From: a candidate division TM6 bacterium GW2011_GWF2_28_16
GTDB lineage: Bacteria; Patescibacteriota; Microgenomatia; UBA1400; PJMF01
Direction: 5' to 3'
Length of the DNA stretch: 64,000 nucleotides
Assembly: GCA_001029715.1 (NCBI GenBank)
Contig: CP011212.1
Span: forward strand, 398,936-462,935
Part shown: piece by piece, positions 37,165 to 48,786 of the stretch
Position numbering within the stretch: the first letter of the stretch is position 1
How the letters are laid out: every line of letters begins with the position of its first letter
The notes under the pieces: model-generated
The model's input: only the letters and a program-made list of their open reading frames with translations
Databases searched by the model: none
What the model was told of the DNA's origin: nothing
Position numbers and translations under genes: made by a program

Positions 37165-37270
37165 TTTTATATTCTAGCTTTTCTTTTTAACTAACTCAAG
37201 CAAAAGAATTTTGTTGATGTTATACTTGACGCATTCAAAATCAAAAAATTTAAAAATAGAAAGGTTTTTA

Positions 37271-39487
37271 ATGTCTTTTAGATCTGGTAAGTGGCAAGAA
37301 GAAATTAACACTAGGGATTTTATTTTAAATAATTTTACTCCCTACGATGGCGATAATTCTTTTCTAAAAGGTCCCACCGAAGCGACCAAAGAACTTTGGC
37401 AAAAATCTAGCGAACTTTTACAAAAAGAGATGAAAAATGGTGGTATTTTAGATATTGATACCAAAACCATCTCTTCAATAACCAGCCATAAACCTGGATA
37501 TTTAGATAAGAAAATTGAAAAGATTGTTGGTTTTCAAACAGACGCTCCACTAAAAAGAGCCATGAAGCCTTATGGAGGTATTAGAGTGGTTGAGGCTGCT
37601 TGTGAAGAAAATGGCTACAAAGTTGATCCGGCAGTTTCTGAAATTTTTAATAAATATCGTAAATCTCATAATGATGGTGTTTTTGATGTTTATACTAAAA
37701 CTATGCGTCAACTACGTTCAACTGGTATTTTGACTGGTTTACCAGACAATTATGCTCGTGGCAGAATTATTGGTGATTATCGTCGTGTGGCTTTATATGG
37801 TATCGATCGTTTAGTTGAGGCCAAAAAAGCAGATAAAGAGACTTTGGATGGCGTAATGACTGATGATTTAATCAGACTCCGTGAAGAAATCAGTGAACAA
37901 ATTAAAGCTTTAGGAGAAATGAAGGAAATGGCTCTTAGCTATGGCTTTGATATTTCTAAACCAGCCAAAAATGCTCAAGAAGCCATTCAATGGACTTGGT
38001 TTGGTTTCTTAGCCGCTCTAAAGGAACAAGATGGTGCAGCCATGAGTTTGGGCAATGTCAGTACTTTTTTTGATGTTTATATCGAAAGAGATCTAAAAAA
38101 TGGCAATTTAACTGAAGTTGAGGCTCAAGAATTAGTTGATCATTTCATCATGAAATGTCGTCTCATTCGTCATTTGCGCATGGATGCTTATAATGAGCTT
38201 TTTGCTGGAGATCCAACCTGGATTACGGAAGCAATTGGTGGCTTTTTCTCTAATGGTCAACACAAAATTACCAAGACTAGTTTTAGATTTTTACAAAGTT
38301 TATATAATATTGGTCCAGCTCCAGAGCCAAACTTAACTATTTTATGGTCAGATAAGCTTCCAAAGGGTTTCAAGAAGTTTGCTGCTCAGGTTTCGATTGA
38401 CACTTCTTCACTGCAATATGAAAATGACAGCCTGATGCGTGAGGCAGGCAATTGTGATGATTATTGTATTGCTTGTTGTGTTTCGATGATGGAAACCGGC
38501 AAAGAAATGCAATTTTTTGGAGCACGCTGCAATTTAGCTAAAGCTTTGCTAATGGCTCTTAATGAGGGTCGTGATGAAATCAGTGGTGAGCTAGTGGTGA
38601 CTGGAATTGAAAAAATGCCAGCTGGCCCAATTAAATATGAAGAATTTATTAAGAGATTTAAGCAAACTGTAGCTTATTTAGCTAAAGCTTACGTTAATAC
38701 CATGGACGTCATTCATTATATGCATGACAAATATTATTATGAAAAAGCTCAAATGGCCTTGATGGATACCGAGGTTAAAAGAAATATGGCTTTTGGTATG
38801 GCAGGATTAAGCGTAGTGGCAGATTCTATTTCAGCGATTAAATTTGCCAAAGTTACACCAATTCGCAATGAAGAAGGTTTGACGACTGGTTTTGAGACAG
38901 AAGGTGAATTCCCAATGTATGGCAATGATGATGATCGCGTTGATACAATCGCTCAGAGCTTGGTTAGCGATTTTAATAAAGAATTGGCTAAGCAACACAT
39001 TTATCGTGATGCAACTCCAACTTTGTCGATTTTAACCATCACTTCTAACGTTGTTTATGGCAAGAAAACTGGTTCTACCCCAGACGGACGTAAAAAAGGT
39101 GAACCTTTTGCTCCAGGAGCGAATCCAATGCATGGTCGTGATCATTCAGGTGCAATTGCCTCACTAAATTCAGTGGCCAAGATTGATTATCATGATGCTA
39201 GAGATGGTGTTTCTAACACTTTTTCAATCGTGCCAAAAACCTTAGGTGAAAATAAGGAAACTCAGGTCAACAATCTTTTGGCAATGCTTGATGGTTACTT
39301 TAACAAAAACGCTCATCACCTAAACGTTAATGTTTTGAATCGTGAAACTTTGGAAGATGCTATGAAGCATCCAGAGAAATATCCACAATTAACCATTCGT
39401 GTTTCTGGATATGCGGTTAACTTTGTCAGACTGAGTGAGGCTCATCAACGAGAAGTCATTGCTAGAACCTTTCATGAAAGCATGTAA
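37271..39487 (+). CDS. pflB: Formate C-acetyltransferase (pyruvate formate-lyase)
   Basis: Catalytic CC (IACCVSM) and glycyl-radical motif RVSGYAV near the C-terminus. Start set at ATG 37271 with a GAAAGG SD. Confidence 0.9.
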
Positions 39488-40220
39488 TCTGAAAATCCAT
39501 TCGATTGAAACCTTTGGGACTCATGATGGTCCAGGTATTCGTTTGGTAATTTTTGCACAGGGCTGTCTTTTTCGCTGTCTTTATTGTCACAACCCAGACA
39601 CACAAGCTTTGGAAACTGATAAAACCAAAACGATTAAAATTAAAGAAATTCTTGAACTTTTAGAAAAGCAAAGAACCTATTTTGGCAAAACTGGTGGCTT
39701 AACGATTTCTGGTGGTGAGCCAACACTACAAGCCACTGGGTTAATTGAACTTTTCAAAGAATGCAAAAAAAGAGCTTTTAATACCTGTCTCGATACTTGT
39801 GGAGCAATTTATAGCCGAGAAGTGCAAGAGCTTTATGATTTAGCTGATTTAGTCATGCTTGATGTTAAACACATTGATGATGGCTGGCACCAAAAATTAA
39901 CTGGGATGAGCAATGCTAATACTCTTAAAAACGCTGCTTATCGAGAAAAAACAGGCAAAGAATTGTGGTTGCGCTATGTTTTGGTGCCCGGTTGGACCGA
40001 TCAAGAAGAACATCTGGAAACATGGGCTAAGTATTTTGCAAATTATAAAACTCTTAAAAGAGTAGAATTAATTCCTTATCATAAATTAGGAGTTTTTAAG
40101 TATGAGGCTTTGGGTCGTAAATATGAACTCGATGGAGTTGAGCCCCCGACAAAAACTGAGATTGCTAAAGCAGCAGAAATTTTTATAAAGTATTTAGGTA
40201 ATAAAGTTGTGGTGGTTTAA
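39474..40220 (+). CDS. pflA: Pyruvate formate-lyase activating enzyme (radical SAM)
   Basis: [25 protein letters not shown] (CxxxCxxC). Collinear with the E. coli PflA N-terminus. Overlaps pflB by 14 nt. Confidence 0.9.
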
Positions 40221-40247
40221 GTCATCTCAATGAATAGAAAGTAAATT

Positions 40248-42335
40248 ATGAATTTTGAAGCCCTTTTTTATCCAAAGTCGATCGCTATTGTTGGTGCATC
40301 TAGTAGAGAGAAAACAGTTGGTAATGACGTGGTTAAAAACCTTGTTAGACAGGGCTATGAGGGTAAAATTTATCCAATTAATCCGAAAATTAATAGGCTC
40401 TATGATTTGAAGGTTTATGAGAGTATTGAAAAAATTGCAGATAAAATTGATTTATTAGTGGTGGCTATTCCAGCTAAATTTGTGGCCGAAGAAATTCGTA
40501 AGTCTGCCGAAAAAGGCACTAAGGCTGTGATTGTTATTTCAGCTGGCTTCAAAGAAGCTGGCAATCTAGAACTAGAAAAAGAACTGGCTGAAACTTGCAA
40601 TGAGCTTGAAATTACCTTAATCGGCCCAAATTGTTTGGGTGCAATTAATGCTGAGCATAGCATGAATGCTTCTTTCGCTGCCATCATGCCACCAGTCGGA
40701 GATGTAGCTTTCTTCTCTCAAAGTGGTGCTCTATGCACTGCAGTTTTGGATTATGCCAAAGATATGGGCATTGGTTTCTCTAAGTTTGTGAGTATTGGCA
40801 ATAAAGCTGCTTTAGATGAGCTAGATTTAATTAAATATTTGCATGAAGATCCAAAAACCAAAGTCATTTGTCTTTATGCCGAATCTCTTGAAAATGCTCC
40901 AGAATTTATCAAGGTTTTACGTGAACTGAATAGAGGGGAAAATCCTAAACCAATTATTGTGCTTAAATCTGGTAAGACTAGTGCTGGTGCTGGAGCAATT
41001 GCTTCACATACTGGTTCTTTAAGCAGTGGAGATAGTGCTTACGAAGCTCTTTTTGCTCAGGCAGGGATTATTCGTGCCAATAGCATCAGCGAACTTTTTG
41101 ATTTAGCTCAGGTTTTTTCGATGAATGAGCTCCAAAAAGTTAAAAAAGTAACTATCATCACTAATGCTGGCGGTCCAGGTGTTTTGACTACTGATGCAGT
41201 TGTAGAGAGTGGTTTGGAAATGGCTGAATTAGATCCTAAGACAGTTGCTAAATTGCATTCTTTTTTACCTGCTGCTGCTAGCACTCACAATCCAGTTGAT
41301 GTTTTGGGTGATGCAGTAGGAGAGGTCTATGAAAAGACAATTAGTGTTTTAGCTAAAGATCCAGGCACCGATGCCATTATTCTTCTTTTGACACCTCAAT
41401 CAATGACTGAGCCAGTTAAAACTGCTGAAGCAGTGGTAAAAATGCGTAAAACTAGCAAAAAACCAGTGGTAGTGAGTTTAATGGGCCGAGCTTTGGTAGC
41501 TGAAGGGGTAGAAGTTTTAAAAGAAAATAAAATTGCTTCAACTACTTTTCCAGAGCCAGCCGCAACAGCTTTGGCCAAATTTGCTAAATTTAGTGAATGG
41601 AGTAAAGAAAAGAATGAGTTAGCTTTAAGTTATGATGATGTTGATAAAGCTAAGGTGGCTACAATTTTCACGGAGGCCAAGAGTAAGGGGCAAACTTCTT
41701 TTCCAGAAGCAGAGGCAATGGAGATCATGAGGGCTTATAAATTTCCGCTAATGAAATCTGCTGTAGTTAAAAATGCCAAAGAAGCTTTAAGAATGATGCA
41801 AGAATTTAATTGCGAAGTGGCAATGAAAATTGTTTCTCCAGATATTTTGCACAAAAGCGATGTTGGCGGAGTTAGTTTGGGGGTTACTGCAGAGACTGTA
41901 GTTACTGAATATCAAGCAATGATAAAAAGAGTTGCGCAAAATAAACCTGAAGCAAAATTAGAGGGTGTTTTATTATTACAAATGGCAAAAAAAGGCACAG
42001 AGTTAATTTTGGGTATTAATAAAAATTCTTTAGGCACAATGCTAATGTTTGGTTTGGGTGGTATTTATGTAGAGATATTTAAAGATGTGAAATTTGCTTT
42101 TGCTCCGCTAACCAGAGCTGATGCTTTAAGTATGATAAATGGTTTACATTGTAGTAAATTATTAGAAGGAGCCAGAGGCGAAAAGGCAGTTGATAAAGAA
42201 AAAATTATTGAAGCTATTGGTCGCTTGTCTCAATTGGTAAATGATTTTCCAGAAATTGTTGAATTAGACATCAACCCTTTATTGGTTAATGCTGAAGGCA
42301 CTAAAGTTTTAGATGCAAGAGTGGTGATTGAATAA
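40248..42335 (+). CDS. Acetate--CoA ligase (ADP-forming), fused alpha/beta subunits
   Basis: N-terminal CoA-binding domain (SIAIVGASSREKTVGN), succinyl-CoA-synthetase-like ligase domain, C-terminal ATP-grasp. 695 aa. Confidence 0.85.
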   Translation: MNFEALFYPKSIAIVGASSREKTVGNDVVKNLVRQGYEGKIYPINPKINRLYDLKVYESIEKIADKIDLLVVAIPAKFVAEEIRKSAEKGTKAVIVISAGFKEAGNLELEKELAETCNELEITLIGPNCLGAINAEHSMNASFAAIMPPVGDVAFFSQSGALCTAVLDYAKDMGIGFSKFVSIGNKAALDELDLIKYLHEDPKTKVICLYAESLENAPEFIKVLRELNRGENPKPIIVLKSGKTSAGAGAIASHTGSLSSGDSAYEALFAQAGIIRANSISELFDLAQVFSMNELQKVKKVTIITNAGGPGVLTTDAVVESGLEMAELDPKTVAKLHSFLPAAASTHNPVDVLGDAVGEVYEKTISVLAKDPGTDAIILLLTPQSMTEPVKTAEAVVKMRKTSKKPVVVSLMGRALVAEGVEVLKENKIASTTFPEPAATALAKFAKFSEWSKEKNELALSYDDVDKAKVATIFTEAKSKGQTSFPEAEAMEIMRAYKFPLMKSAVVKNAKEALRMMQEFNCEVAMKIVSPDILHKSDVGGVSLGVTAETVVTEYQAMIKRVAQNKPEAKLEGVLLLQMAKKGTELILGINKNSLGTMLMFGLGGIYVEIFKDVKFAFAPLTRADALSMINGLHCSKLLEGARGEKAVDKEKIIEAIGRLSQLVNDFPEIVELDINPLLVNAEGTKVLDARVVIE

Positions 42336-44885: not shown

Positions 44886-45755
44886 ATGAATCAATTTGAT
44901 CACTTAGTTTTATTAACTCTTACTTACAGCAGTTGTTTCAACTTTGCTTTAAGTGAGAATGAGGTGGCAAGACGCTTAGTGAAAGGCGAAAAAAAATTGT
45001 TCTTTTCTAGAAATAAAATAAAGGTATCTTTAAAAAAATTGCTAGAGCAATCTTTAATTCAAAGTGATGGCCAATATTTTTATTTAGAAGCAAATAATTT
45101 GTTAAATAGAAAAAGTAAAGCTAAATTTGTAGAAAGTAAAAAAGCTGACGCTAAAGAATTTGTTAAACTAGCTCAAAGGGTTCCTTTTGTCAAAGCAATT
45201 GTTTTGACCGGTTCAACAGCTGTTGGCAATGCAGGCAAGAACGATGATTTAGATTTTATGATTATTTGTCAAAATAATACTTTATGGATTACAAGATTTT
45301 TATTAGTTATTTTAACCAAATTAAAAAACAAAAGACCTGGTATTCAGGAAAGCAGTTCTTGGTGCCTCAATCTTTGGTTAGATGAAAATGATTTGGCGAT
45401 GGGAAAACAGAGAAGAAGTCTTTATGAAGCTTATGAAATTTTACAAATGAAATTTATTTTTGATCGCGGTTCTTACGAGCAACTTTTCCTCAATGCCAAT
45501 CAATGGTTAAAAAAACATCTCTTTTTTTATGATAATTTTAAGTTTGGCAGATATAAAAGAGGAATGTCTTTTTCGCTATTCAATCGATTTATGTTTATAA
45601 TCCAAAAACTTTATCGCCAGATTATTTTTGGTAAAGAAAACTTTTCCCTCAGCCCTACCCAAGCATTTTTTAATGAAATTTCATTTAAGGAAAAGCTGTT
45701 TGGAAGGTTGGAGAAGAAATTAGATGAAATTGGCAAACAAACTATCAGTTTTTGA
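44886..45755 (+). CDS. Pol-beta superfamily nucleotidyltransferase domain protein
   Basis: LTGSTAVGNAGKNDDLDFMII matches the G[GS]-x9-13-D-x-D NTase core. ~90-aa N-terminal extension. 3' end overlaps the next gene by 32 nt. Confidence 0.5.
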   Translation: MNQFDHLVLLTLTYSSCFNFALSENEVARRLVKGEKKLFFSRNKIKVSLKKLLEQSLIQSDGQYFYLEANNLLNRKSKAKFVESKKADAKEFVKLAQRVPFVKAIVLTGSTAVGNAGKNDDLDFMIICQNNTLWITRFLLVILTKLKNKRPGIQESSSWCLNLWLDENDLAMGKQRRSLYEAYEILQMKFIFDRGSYEQLFLNANQWLKKHLFFYDNFKFGRYKRGMSFSLFNRFMFIIQKLYRQIIFGKENFSLSPTQAFFNEISFKEKLFGRLEKKLDEIGKQTISF

Positions 45756-46560
45756 GAATACTTGTTTAAAAGATAAAAAAAGAAATAGTTATCTCCTTAA
45801 TTTCATTAAATTGACAGTTGAAAGAAGAACAAATGAACTCAGGTTATTGCAATTAAAAAAATTAACTAAAATAGCTCCATTGATAGATTTGGGAAAATTA
45901 ACTGCTGGACTAGTGCATGATATTAGACAGCCATTGTCAGTATTGAGTCTAATTTTGCAAGACGCTAAAAGAAATAAAAACATAATTTCTAACTTGGACC
46001 AGGCCTTTTTAGCAATTGATAAGATTGATGATCTTTCAAAAATGAGTGCCTGCATACTTTTTAACGAATCAGAACTTGAAGTTTTCAATTTAAACTTAGA
46101 AATTAATAAGCTAATCAGTTTATTTGAATACAAATCTAGAACGAAAAAAGTAAAGATTATTTTCAAGCCCAGTAGAGATTATGAGCTTTATGCAGATAGA
46201 AAAAAATTAAATCAAGTTTTGGCTAATTTAATTTTAAATGCATTGGAATCTTATGAAAATTTAGAAAAAAGTGATAAAGACATATTTATTAAATTAATTA
46301 GAAAACCAAGAAATTTACTTATTAAAATTAAAGACTATGGCGTTGGAATAAAAAAAGAAAATTTATCTTTAATATTTGAGCCAAATTTTTCTTCTAAAAT
46401 TAAAGAAGAGGCACTTGGTTTTGGGCTTTATGTTGGTCAAGAAGCAATGGCAAAAGGATATGGCACAAAGATTAAAGTTGAGAGTAAAGATAAATTTGGC
46501 TCAACTTTCACCTTGTTTATTAAAAGTAAATTTGTCTTAGATGAAAATAAAGCTAAGTAA
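45724..46560 (+). CDS. Soluble histidine kinase (HisKA + HATPase_c, no sensor/TM domain)
   Basis: H-box LVHDIRQPLS, N-box LILNALESY, G-boxes GVGI and GFGLYV. No hydrophobic segment. Confidence 0.7.
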   Translation: MKLANKLSVFENTCLKDKKRNSYLLNFIKLTVERRTNELRLLQLKKLTKIAPLIDLGKLTAGLVHDIRQPLSVLSLILQDAKRNKNIISNLDQAFLAIDKIDDLSKMSACILFNESELEVFNLNLEINKLISLFEYKSRTKKVKIIFKPSRDYELYADRKKLNQVLANLILNALESYENLEKSDKDIFIKLIRKPRNLLIKIKDYGVGIKKENLSLIFEPNFSSKIKEEALGFGLYVGQEAMAKGYGTKIKVESKDKFGSTFTLFIKSKFVLDENKAK

Positions 46561-46770
46561 AATATTTTTATAAAATTACCGCTTGCGCTGATTCTCAATT
46601 CTTGCTACTTTAATTATTGCTGTGGAACATAGTGAAAATCTATGACTGTGCCGCAACGGTAATTCCTTTTTAAGGATTAGTCCGATCTTCAGCAAAAGAG
46701 AAATCTTGACGAGCATCGAGGCTGTATATTTTACTGTCGATGCTCCCTAAAGGGGAGCTTTTTTGTTCAA
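46561..46770 (+). promoter_or_regulatory. Structured leader with alternative hairpins ending in an intrinsic terminator (attenuator/riboswitch-like)
   Basis: Hairpin A is GAGCATCGA (46711-46719) / TCGATGCTC (46736-46744). Its 3' arm overlaps the 5' arm of the terminator GCTCCC(46742-46747)-TAAA-GGGAGC + T6. A further long-range stem lies upstream. Confidence 0.4.
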
Positions 46771-46840
46771 AGAACCACGGCTATTAATATTATTAATAGT
46801 TATCTTCGTGGTTAATTTCTGCGAAGTAAGAAAGGTTTTT

Positions 46841-47542
46841 ATGAACACAAAAGCTATCGAAATGGCAGGCAGTATTGGAATTGAGCTAAGCCAAATAAAT
46901 TCAGAATGGACTTCTCTTCAAAGCATTGATTCTTCTTCAATATTAGAGAATGCAGGTAAGGAAGCAGGCATAGAAGATCGTCAGTGGCAAAAATTGCTTT
47001 CTCAAGCTGGTTCTTGGGTGATTGATGGTTTGGATAAAAAGATATTTGAAATACAAAATAAAGTAATTGAGCAAACAACTGCCATTGAGTTAAGAAAAAT
47101 GTTTGGTGTTCCACTTTCATTGCTAGCAATGCCTGTTTTTGTAGAGTTGGCAGGAATGGAATTGGCAGCGAAAATTGATTTGAAAAAAGAAGCCATGATG
47201 ACCTCTCAAATTTGGGAACAAATTAATAACAGAGTTTTATATATGGTTCAACTTTTCTTAGCAGAGCAAATCAATTTGGTCGAAGATGAAGAAAAAGCTC
47301 ATCAGAGTGCTTTGAGTGAATCAAAGAAAGAAGCCGACGGAGTCTCTGGTTTATCAGAAACGGTGGGAGCTGTGGAGAATCAATTTGCTTCAAAGCTGGA
47401 AAAACTAAAAGATAAGAAAGAATCTTTAATAAGTGTTTTCAAAAAGATTGGTGGAGATTTAGTTAATACTGTTGAGAGAGCTTTTGAGACTACTGTTTTT
47501 AGTGCGAGTAGGCAAAGTACTGCTGTTACGGTGATTCAATAA
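46841..47542 (+). CDS. Hypothetical all-alpha protein
   Basis: Start chosen at ATG 46841 with AAGAAAGG SD (MNTKAIEMAGS...); the track TTG start at 46763 lies inside the terminator. Confidence 0.5.
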   Translation: MNTKAIEMAGSIGIELSQINSEWTSLQSIDSSSILENAGKEAGIEDRQWQKLLSQAGSWVIDGLDKKIFEIQNKVIEQTTAIELRKMFGVPLSLLAMPVFVELAGMELAAKIDLKKEAMMTSQIWEQINNRVLYMVQLFLAEQINLVEDEEKAHQSALSESKKEADGVSGLSETVGAVENQFASKLEKLKDKKESLISVFKKIGGDLVNTVERAFETTVFSASRQSTAVTVIQ

Positions 47543-47547
47543 ACTTG

Positions 47548-47618
47548 ATCCCGGGCCAGGATTTGAACCTAGAATAATTGATTCAGAGTCAATTGTGATG
47601 CCATTTCACTACCCGGGA
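47548..47618 (-). tRNA. tRNA-Gln (anticodon CUG)
   Basis: Reverse complement: acceptor TCCCGGG/CCCGGGA, D-arm GTGA..TCAC, anticodon stem ATTGA/TCAAT with loop CTCTGAA (CUG), T-arm CTAGG-TTCAAAT-CCTGG. Confidence 0.85.
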
Positions 47619-47690: not shown

Positions 47691-48356
47691 ATGAAAAAAA
47701 TATTAATTTTAGAAAATGACTGGACTCTTTTATCTTCTTTAAGCGATTTTTTAAAAAAGAAGGGACATTTATCTTATTGTTCTCAATCTATAAAAAGAGC
47801 TGAAGAATTACTCAAAAAAAAGACCTTTGATTTATTTTTATGCGAAAGGGTTTTGCCAGATGGAGATACTTTAGATTTATTAGAAAAAATGAAAGAAAGA
47901 AAGCTTTTTACGAGAGTTTTAGTTTTTAGTTCTAAAAAATCTTTAGTAGATCGGATTGCTACATTAAAATTAGCAGATGATTTTATAGCCAAACCATTTA
48001 ATTTTACGGAATTAACTTTAAAAATAAAGAATATCTTATGTTTAGAAAAAATAAGAGATCAAGATTTTTTTGAAAATTCATTTCTCTCGCTTAAAGAAGA
48101 TAGTTTTTTTACTGATAAAGTAAATCATTTTCGTCCTCAAGAATTAAAAATTTTAGAATGTTTCTCTAAGCATAGAAATTTTGTTATTTCGTATGAAACC
48201 ATATCCTCTTATGTTTGGGGCTATAAAGAAACAATTCCTCTTAAAAAAACAATTAGTGTTTATATTAGAAGAATAAGAATAAAGCTTCCAAATAATTTTA
48301 AGATAGAAACAATTAAAAATAGAGGATATAGATTTATTAATTTAAAGGAAAAATAA
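47691..48356 (+). CDS. OmpR/PhoB-type response regulator with degenerate (pseudo-)receiver domain
   Basis: Receiver-like N-terminus with conserved Ser/Thr (VFSSKK) and Lys (FIAKPF), but Cys/Glu (FDLFLCERVLP) at the expected phospho-acceptor Asp position. C-terminal winged helix (RIRIKL...IETIKNRGYRF). Confidence 0.65.
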   Translation: MKKILILENDWTLLSSLSDFLKKKGHLSYCSQSIKRAEELLKKKTFDLFLCERVLPDGDTLDLLEKMKERKLFTRVLVFSSKKSLVDRIATLKLADDFIAKPFNFTELTLKIKNILCLEKIRDQDFFENSFLSLKEDSFFTDKVNHFRPQELKILECFSKHRNFVISYETISSYVWGYKETIPLKKTISVYIRRIRIKLPNNFKIETIKNRGYRFINLKEK

Positions 48357-48786
48357 TTCTAAAAGTGGCACCTTTATTTTTTTTAGAAATAATTTCTAAT
48401 TTAGCTTTAAATTCCTTTTCTAAAATTTCATTAATTTGGAACATATTTGAATTGGAGTTTTTTTCTCTAAATAAAAACCCTTTTTGTTTGACTAGTGCTT
48501 TTTCTAAAAAAGACAGGCCAATTCCTCCACCCGTTATACTTATTGAAAGTTTTTTTGAACTTTCGATATTGCTAGTAATTAGAATTACTTTATTTTCTGA
48601 ATTGCTATTTGGATAAGCTTGTTCTGCATTCTTTATTAGTTTGTTTAGTAATTCTTCAAAAATATATTTTTTGCCAGGAATTCTAATTTCATTAGGAAGA
48701 TCAATTTTCAAAATGTAAACAAACTTCTTTTGCTTGATACGTAAAATGTTGGTGGTTTTTATAATTATTTCTCCAACATTTTTCAT
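48337..48786 (-). CDS. Stand-alone GHKL ATPase domain protein (HATPase_c only; RsbW/SpoIIAB-like or split kinase)
   Basis: N-box LIKNAEQAY and G-box TGGGIGLS in 149 aa. No DHp/H-box. Confidence 0.5.
   Translation of the reverse strand: MKNVGEIIIKTTNILRIKQKKFVYILKIDLPNEIRIPGKKYIFEELLNKLIKNAEQAYPNSNSENKVILITSNIESSKKLSISITGGGIGLSFLEKALVKQKGFLFREKNSNSNMFQINEILEKEFKAKLEIISKKNKGATFRIIFPLN

Follow-up and report, generated by a model that had tools for sequence, protein, structure and literature searches.

The leader of a conserved, unannotated gene in the DNA analysed here (a stretch of 64,000 nt, hereafter the window) is a small cobalamin (vitamin B12) riboswitch, one more member of a known RNA class. 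The leader belongs to the interval 46561-46840, flanked on one side by a histidine-kinase gene (45724-46560) and on the other by a 233-codon ORF (46841-47542); the elements of the leader and the gene that it precedes lie on the plus strand. An Rfam scan of the 64-kb window gave a cobalamin riboswitch match at 46597-46756 (RF01482, 55.6 bits, E=1.7e-7; gathering score 50). When only the aptamer, 46606-46699, was considered, RF01689 matched with 43.4 bits, its gathering score being 36.5. The curated gathering score was exceeded for two families of Rfam clan CL00101, RF01482 ('AdoCbl') and RF01689 ('AdoCbl-II'). The 151-nt leader folded with z = -3.1, and 0/200 shuffles folded equally well. An earlier note on this DNA had described a riboswitch-type leader with mutually exclusive hairpins, which agrees with the Rfam match and with a GCTC common to two of the hairpins. 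The same note had recognised no known riboswitch consensus and had suggested that this could be a novel cis-regulatory RNA; the Rfam search that it proposed as a check found the cobalamin riboswitch, and the novelty is gone. Class membership is a covariance-model match, and it points to a corrinoid as the putative ligand. We consider it likely, from the predicted energies and the covariation, that the riboswitch is of the class-II type and is repressed by B12 (OFF) through transcription termination, so that the ligand would lower expression of the gene.

The analysis was based on 29 related loci (designated L001 to L029) gathered by protein search and contig look-up; several were duplicates, and L011 was nearly a copy of the window locus (97% identical). 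The leader was found upstream of the orthologue at every related locus with enough upstream DNA, that is, at ~23 distinct loci besides the window. Immediately ahead of the gene, a match to the cobalamin clan reached the gathering score at 19 loci. L021, L023, L026 and L027 (L027 incomplete) were just below the gathering score, with E <= 5e-3, and L015 was without a match at the gathering score, yet aligned column for column. The earlier note would have counted a leader not conserved upstream of orthologues against the riboswitch reading, in which the leader regulates the downstream ORF; the same leader was present ahead of every orthologue examined, and the reading stands. The related loci came from Microgenomates/Pacebacteria-type CPR genomes. 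Loci L003, L004, L005, L007 and L010 are an AT-rich CPR-type locus in MAGs titled 'uncultured Pseudomonadales bacterium' and L008 bears the title Saccharibacteria; the taxonomy assigned to these third-party assemblies does not seem reliable.

The aptamer, of the Cbl-II type, occupies 46616-46696 and is supported by RF01482, RF01689 and compensatory changes. It contains a 6-bp P1 (UUGCUG 46617-22 paired with CAGCAA 46690-95), the P4/L4 hairpin (46628-44), P5/L5 with the loop UGCCG (46649-53) and P6 (CGG 46657-59 paired with CCG 46682-84), which carries a short extension hairpin at 46660-46681. A B12-box-like segment, AGUCCGAUCUUCAGC, is located at 46679-93. Compensatory changes on both sides of the helix were observed at five pairs of P1 and four pairs of P4 and also in the P6 extension; P5 and the base of P6 were invariant, and L019 and L021 contained bigger P6 inserts. 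Cbl-II riboswitches are defined by a missing P2 loop-stem-loop between P1 and P3 and by a P6 extension in the form of a short hairpin (PMC7367189). In the window P1 and the P4 hairpin are 6 nt apart (GUGGAA), without a P2 module, which places the aptamer in Cbl-II. The leader resembles the Cbl-II riboswitches (RF01482/RF01689, env8HyCbl-type) in its compact ~80-nt aptamer with no P2 and a short P6 extension, and it shares with them the GUGAAAAUC L4 loop, the GCCGCAACGGU core, the B12-box-like 3' segment and the complementarity of L5 to a downstream hairpin loop. Such a kissing loop is common to every cobalamin riboswitch class (PMC7367189). The leader differs from the Cbl-II consensus in having UGCCG and not UCCCG as L5, and CGAGCA as L13, while its P1 has just 6 bp and begins at or near the predicted transcription start. 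It also differs from known Cbl-II riboswitches in its host lineage, CPR/Patescibacteria (Ca. Pacebacteria), and in the literature that we searched no report of a cobalamin riboswitch in CPR/Patescibacteria was found. In L021 (~215-250) and L029 (~1335-1355) the P1-P13* linker contained an additional hairpin of 22-29 nt, which calls to mind the hairpin in the P8-P9 linker of the B. subtilis yvrC riboswitch (PMC7367189).

A promoter is predicted at 46583-46611, with a -35 box TTGCGC (46583-46588), a 17-nt spacer and an extended -10 element TG-C-TACTTT (46603-46611). The -35 TTG and the extended -10 TGnTAnnTT were invariant in 13 orthologous leaders, where the neighbouring bases varied, and TGCTAnnTT was also present at the distant loci L021 and L028. 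From this conservation transcription is predicted to start at about A46616, a few bases before P1. The promoter at 46583-46611 was not called by a simple consensus scan, because its -35 box fits just 3/6 positions. Another candidate promoter, inside the platform (TTGACG at 46706...), was rejected since its spacing to any -10 was not conserved. The earlier note had also described a long-range stem in the upstream leader. This stem can be drawn as 9 pairs with a bulged C between ACCGCTTGCG (46578-46587, one base off the position implied there) and CGCAACGGT (46652-46660). In the 13 orthologous leaders it was 78.6% paired with zero compensatory changes, and 3/9 pairs were broken in about half or more of them. 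Its 3' arm is invariant aptamer core and its 5' arm holds the conserved -35 TTG; since the 5' arm lies upstream of the predicted start (~46616), it is probably untranscribed. Considering the pairing, the missing covariation and the coincidence of the 5' arm with the -35 box, we rejected the long-range stem as an accident of promoter and aptamer sequence.

The expression platform consists of the P13* hairpin, Hairpin A and an intrinsic terminator. P13* pairs CUUGA (46705-09) with UCGAG (46716-20) and displays the loop L13, CGAGCA (46710-15). Hairpin A, the antiterminator, pairs GAGCAUCGA (46711-19) with UCGAUGCUC (46737-45); in the DNA the arms read GAGCATCGA (46711-46719) and TCGATGCTC (46737-46745), giving 9 bp and a 17-nt loop. 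The intrinsic terminator, 46742-46764, pairs GCUCCC (46742-47) with GGGAGC (46753-58) and is followed by U6 (46759-64); it was called by a consensus scan, which found 2 sites compared with 0.4 +/- 0.6 in shuffles. Since GCTC 46742-46745 is used by both Hairpin A and the terminator, the two structures are mutually exclusive. The 9-bp Hairpin A (46711-46745), the GCTCCC/GGGAGC terminator with its T6 and the overlap between them had been pointed out in the earlier note and were confirmed at these positions. P13* had not been mentioned there; its kissing loop would let the bound ligand decide which of the two structures, Hairpin A or the terminator, is formed.

The pairing of the platform was followed in distant as well as close relatives. 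In alignment A5, made of the modules of 20 distinct leaders excised by regular expressions, so that its pair counts lean towards the modelled structure, the bound-state structure (P1, P4, P5, P6, P13*, kissing loop and terminator) showed 98.6% of cells paired and 11 pairs with compensatory change, which was reached by 0/500 shuffles. The UCUUGACGAGCAUCGAG module was nearly invariant among close relatives and therefore distant family members were compared. P13* in A5 had 99% of cells paired, with two-sided changes at one pair (3 sequences) and one-sided changes at three: C-G was replaced by U-A or A-U (the 3 sequences), U.G by U-A or C-G, U-A by U.G, and A-U by G.U. The 5' and 3' arms of P13* were AUCGA and UCGAU in L021, UUUGA and UCAGA in L026, CUUGA and UCAGG in L027, UUCGG and UCGAA in L028, and CUUGA and UCAAG in L029. 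The terminator had 100% of cells paired in the 20 leaders of A5, where U-A replaced C-G once and G.U replaced G-C three times, and it was present in 21/23 distinct leaders tabulated. For Hairpin A the share of paired cells was 92.8%, and 3 sequences had A-U in place of G-C. The loop of Hairpin A was hypervariable (10-55 nt), and no conserved complement to L5 was found in it across the leaders compared. Two distant members, L022 (1297-1500) and L023 (1308-1500), contain the aptamer and the UCUUGACGAGCAUCGAG module. They keep P13* and are without the 3' arm of Hairpin A and without the GCUCCC/GGGAGC terminator; P13* is therefore the conserved partner of the aptamer. In L023 the sequence UUCCCUU, directly after P13*, is complementary to the Shine-Dalgarno (SD) sequence GAAGGAAGGG of this locus, which suggests that the platform of L022 and L023 may be translational.

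The predicted stabilities differ widely between the three hairpins: -1.9 kcal/mol for P13*, -11 to -18 (about -15) kcal/mol for Hairpin A and -10 to -12.5 (about -11) kcal/mol for the terminator. Unconstrained minimum free energy (MFE) folding gave Hairpin A in 16/21 platforms and the terminator already in 5/21, and with P13* held closed the terminator formed in 21/21 platforms.

Between L5 (UGCCG, 46649-53) and L13 (CGAGCA, 46710-15) five Watson-Crick pairs can be formed with A46712 bulged. The candidate kissing loop comprises C46710-G46653, G46711-C46652, G46713-C46651, C46714-G46650 and A46715-U46649. Both loops were invariant in 23/23 distinct leaders tabulated, and the five pairs are without covariation support because neither loop varies; the register proposed here would follow from complementarity and from comparison with the Rfam model. 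The consensus pair of RF01482, uCcCg with CGAGG, has the same geometry (CG, bulged A, G, N) as L5 and L13 here, and the C-to-G change of L5 relative to this consensus would be matched by a G-to-C change of L13. This compensatory match holds for the first CGAG only, which is followed by CA. In the Rfam alignment L13 falls on the second CGAG (46717-20), which is part of Hairpin A. However, the second CGAG was altered in 6/21 leaders (CGAAG, CGATT, CGAAC, CAGAC, CAGGG and CAAGC) and the bases after it varied, while CGAGCA was invariant, and we rejected this placement of L13. The outer P13 stem of the Rfam alignment, UCUUGA/UAAAGG, was rejected along with it, the terminator loops being variable. 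Bulged kissing loops have been documented in env8HyCbl and in the A. halodurans riboswitch (PMC10653944).

In the mechanism that we propose, transcription would start from the conserved extended -10 promoter, a few bases before P1. With a corrinoid in place, L5 would kiss the loop of P13* through the five pairs with the bulged A, and this would lock P13*, keeping GAGCAUCGA occupied and leaving the downstream UCGAUGCUC free. The free GCUC together with CCC would then pair with GGGAGC to form the terminator, and RNA polymerase would halt at U6. When no ligand is present, P13* alone would be too weak and would be displaced by the stronger Hairpin A, which would tie up half of the terminator 5' arm and allow the gene to be transcribed. 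We favour repression by B12 because the stabilities, the fact that Hairpin A is transcribed first, its variable loop and the folding counts fit a repressing design. That a 5-bp P13* can be held by the kissing loop against a competitor of -15 kcal/mol is a kinetic assumption of this model.

Both repressing and activating designs have been described for cobalamin riboswitches. [quoted passage not shown] 2023, PMC10653944). The leader of the window follows the logic of the repressing Priestia megaterium metE riboswitch, in which the terminator can form once the kissing loop has stabilised P13 (PMC10653944). The corresponding parts are P13* at 46705-20, Hairpin A at 46711-45 and the terminator at 46742-64; the antiterminator is stabler than P13*, both helices covary, and a GC-rich terminator with a U tract lies downstream. 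Compared with metE, the antiterminator here also consumes the L13 loop (GAGCA), P13* is shorter (5 bp) and the proposed kissing loop has a bulged A. The likeness to the activating cobT riboswitch of Alkalihalobacillus halodurans (PMC10653944) is that of a hairpin directly overlapping the 5' arm of the terminator. However, the overlapping hairpin of cobT includes L13 and, when no ligand is bound, is less stable than the terminator, whereas that of the window is without a conserved L13 and is stronger than the terminator. No conserved complement of L5 places L13 in Hairpin A, and by the predicted stabilities the terminator is not favoured in the ligand-free state.

The segment between the terminator and the start codon is a structured 5' UTR (46765-46840) with the SD sequence GAAAGG at 46830-35. 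Region 46765-46850 folded with an MFE of -25 kcal/mol (z = -5.4), and the AUG and part of the SD are buried in a 12-bp helix between 46765-76 and 46834-46. SD occlusion at other loci was comparable but heterogeneous. These structures make a second, translational control layer possible. A stronger form of this idea, that control is dual or chiefly translational and is exerted through access to the ribosome-binding site in the segment after the terminator, appears unlikely to us, for all that the folding of 46765-46850, the pairing of 46765-76 with the SD and AUG and the near-perfect anti-SD sequences of L028 and L029 speak for it, and that L022 and L023, which are without the terminator, must work otherwise. 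Against it, the UTR structures were heterogeneous, with an SD partner within the first 15 nt in just ~10/21 loci, no conserved alternative pairing was found that ties the UTR helix to the ligand state, and the terminator was invariant or covarying in 21/23 distinct leaders tabulated. The anti-SD of L028 (AACUCCUU with AAGGAGUU) stands immediately after the U tract. The UTR of the window also contains a perfect 9-bp palindrome, CTATTAATA-T-TATTAATAG (46781-46799), which forms one of two inner hairpins; it was shortened in L012 and absent from more distant loci, and it could equally be a protein operator.

An activating (ON) switch, in which the kissing loop would stabilise Hairpin A as P13 and B12 would induce the gene as in A. 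halodurans cobT, seems to us improbable. The GCUC common to Hairpin A and the terminator is the activating architecture (PMC10653944), the Rfam covariance model aligns P13/L13 to GAGCAU / CGAGG... / AUGCUC, and the Hairpin A loop of the window has a GGC that is complementary to GCC of L5. This GGC, however, was confined to the window, L012 and L019 in a loop that varies from 10 to 55 nt, and the second CGAG, on which the alignment depends, was destroyed in the 6/21 leaders listed above, in which CGAGCA was kept. An ON switch also requires the terminator to win without ligand, but Hairpin A is transcribed first and was 1-7 kcal/mol stabler in most leaders. Finally, L022 and L023 retain P13* and not Hairpin A. 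The evidence points to the B12-repressed reading, in which L13 is presented by P13*.

The neighbourhood of the gene was compared between the loci. A tRNA-Gln(CTG) gene (47547-47618, minus strand; identified by both ARAGORN and Rfam) is convergent with the ORF and was found 5-60 nt past the ORF stop in 16/16 loci L001-L016 and also in L018; it marks the 3' boundary of the single-gene unit controlled by the riboswitch. One database protein, P0037, reads through into the reverse complement of this tRNA-Gln. The neighbours of the unit in the window are the histidine kinase (45724-46560) and an OmpR-type response regulator (47691-48356), whose 3' end is overlapped on the opposite strand by a short HATPase-like fragment (48337-48786, minus strand). 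The synteny of kinase, regulator and HATPase fragment was limited to close relatives. That the riboswitch is part of an sRNA acting in trans (as EutX/Rli55 of Enterococcus/Listeria), with the flanking two-component system as its possible target, is very improbable, for although the best-scoring Rfam family was RF01482, a model that we take to be built on the eut-locus AdoCbl riboswitch, itself part of such an sRNA, and the kinase and regulator flank the unit in the window and its close relatives, the riboswitch stays with the ORF at L019, L028 and L029, where kinase and regulator are absent, the regulator is of the OmpR type (Trans_reg_C) and not ANTAR, and the UTR showed no dual hexaloop hairpins of an ANTAR-like kind.

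The regulated gene (46841-47542) encodes a 233-aa all-helical protein of a CPR-restricted family. The ORF starts with ATG at 46841, 76 nt past the T tract, and the start Met is conserved in the family, for which we found 50 homologues at 45-100% identity. A longer ORF from TTG 46763, which would give the protein a hydrophobic N-terminus resembling a signal peptide, was rejected because the extension is not conserved as protein and merely translates the conserved leader DNA. Starts at upstream TTG or other codons were frequent among the predictions of gene callers (P0001, P0007, P0012, P0020, P0022, P0040 and P0041, 244-287 aa). These false N-terminal extensions translate the terminator and the UTR (46763-46840), and the 'EPR' that recurs in them derives from the conserved GAACCACGG. 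A profile search of 1.84 billion representative proteins gave 39 clusters only, most of them full-length (~225-265 aa) and the rest shorter fragments. Searches of Pfam, NCBIfam, PHROG and PDB sequences gave no match to the 233-aa protein, and an identical protein is deposited as 'hypothetical protein' from a Candidatus Pacebacteria MAG. In the AlphaFold2 model (pLDDT 87.9) the protein forms three very long helices, and its hydropathy peaks at the motif that is conserved best, PLSLLAMPVFVEL, which is located at the turn between two helices.

The model showed a weak fold likeness to components of the ClyA family of alpha-pore-forming proteins (AhlC, AhlB, ClyA and XaxA), with TM-scores of 0.4-0.5. 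Since long helical bundles match each other easily, we regard this likeness as resemblance and not as membership. Identity to the ClyA family was 8-15%, with no sequence similarity and no Foldseek match at E <= 1e-3, and, unlike ClyA-type toxins, the 233-aa protein is without a signal peptide and without partner paralogues nearby. Neither paralogues nor conserved partner genes were found adjoining the gene, and a scan of 30 window ORFs detected no B12-dependent enzymes. The gene is not a known B12 gene, and the riboswitch is in the 5' leader of this conserved gene at every locus. The function of the protein is probably related to B12, and the protein is presumably needed when B12 is scarce. 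We put forward, as a speculation that is more probably wrong than right by a wide measure, a new B12 function in CPR/Patescibacteria: a helical bundle induced by B12 starvation, whose conserved hydrophobic tip would insert in a membrane, its own or that of the host, and which would bind or import corrinoids. The invariant His154 could then serve as a cobalt ligand. If this reading is true, the functional parallel would be the helical PPE2 behind a B12 riboswitch in M. tuberculosis, the structural reminiscence would be AhlC/ClyA, and the riboswitch would mark a previously unseen vitamin B12 route in ultra-small episymbionts.

The RNA itself is ordinary, a cobalamin riboswitch with what would be a canonical repressing platform, and merits annotation as such. 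The unexplained part is the controlled gene. CPR bacteria have tiny genomes and are almost uncultured, and riboswitches are among the most reliable functional labels for unannotated genes; the one described here is a signpost invariably attached to an unannotated, CPR-restricted protein family. CPR bacteria rely on hosts for most cofactors (PMC11665869), and a gene that would be switched on as B12 runs out offers a concrete, testable entry to cofactor acquisition in these bacteria. The compact 150-nt switch, with its aptamer beginning at about the predicted +1, could moreover serve the genetics of Patescibacteria as a natural part for inducible expression, a need named explicitly by a recent perspective (PMC11665869).

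Elsewhere in the window, a pyruvate formate-lyase (glycyl radical enzyme) is encoded at 37211-39487; a 261-aa ORF (39435-40220), possibly for its activase, comes next, and after it an ADP-forming acetyl-CoA synthetase-like protein is encoded (40248-42335). The genes at 37211-42335 are a fermentative energy module, typical of CPR genomes.
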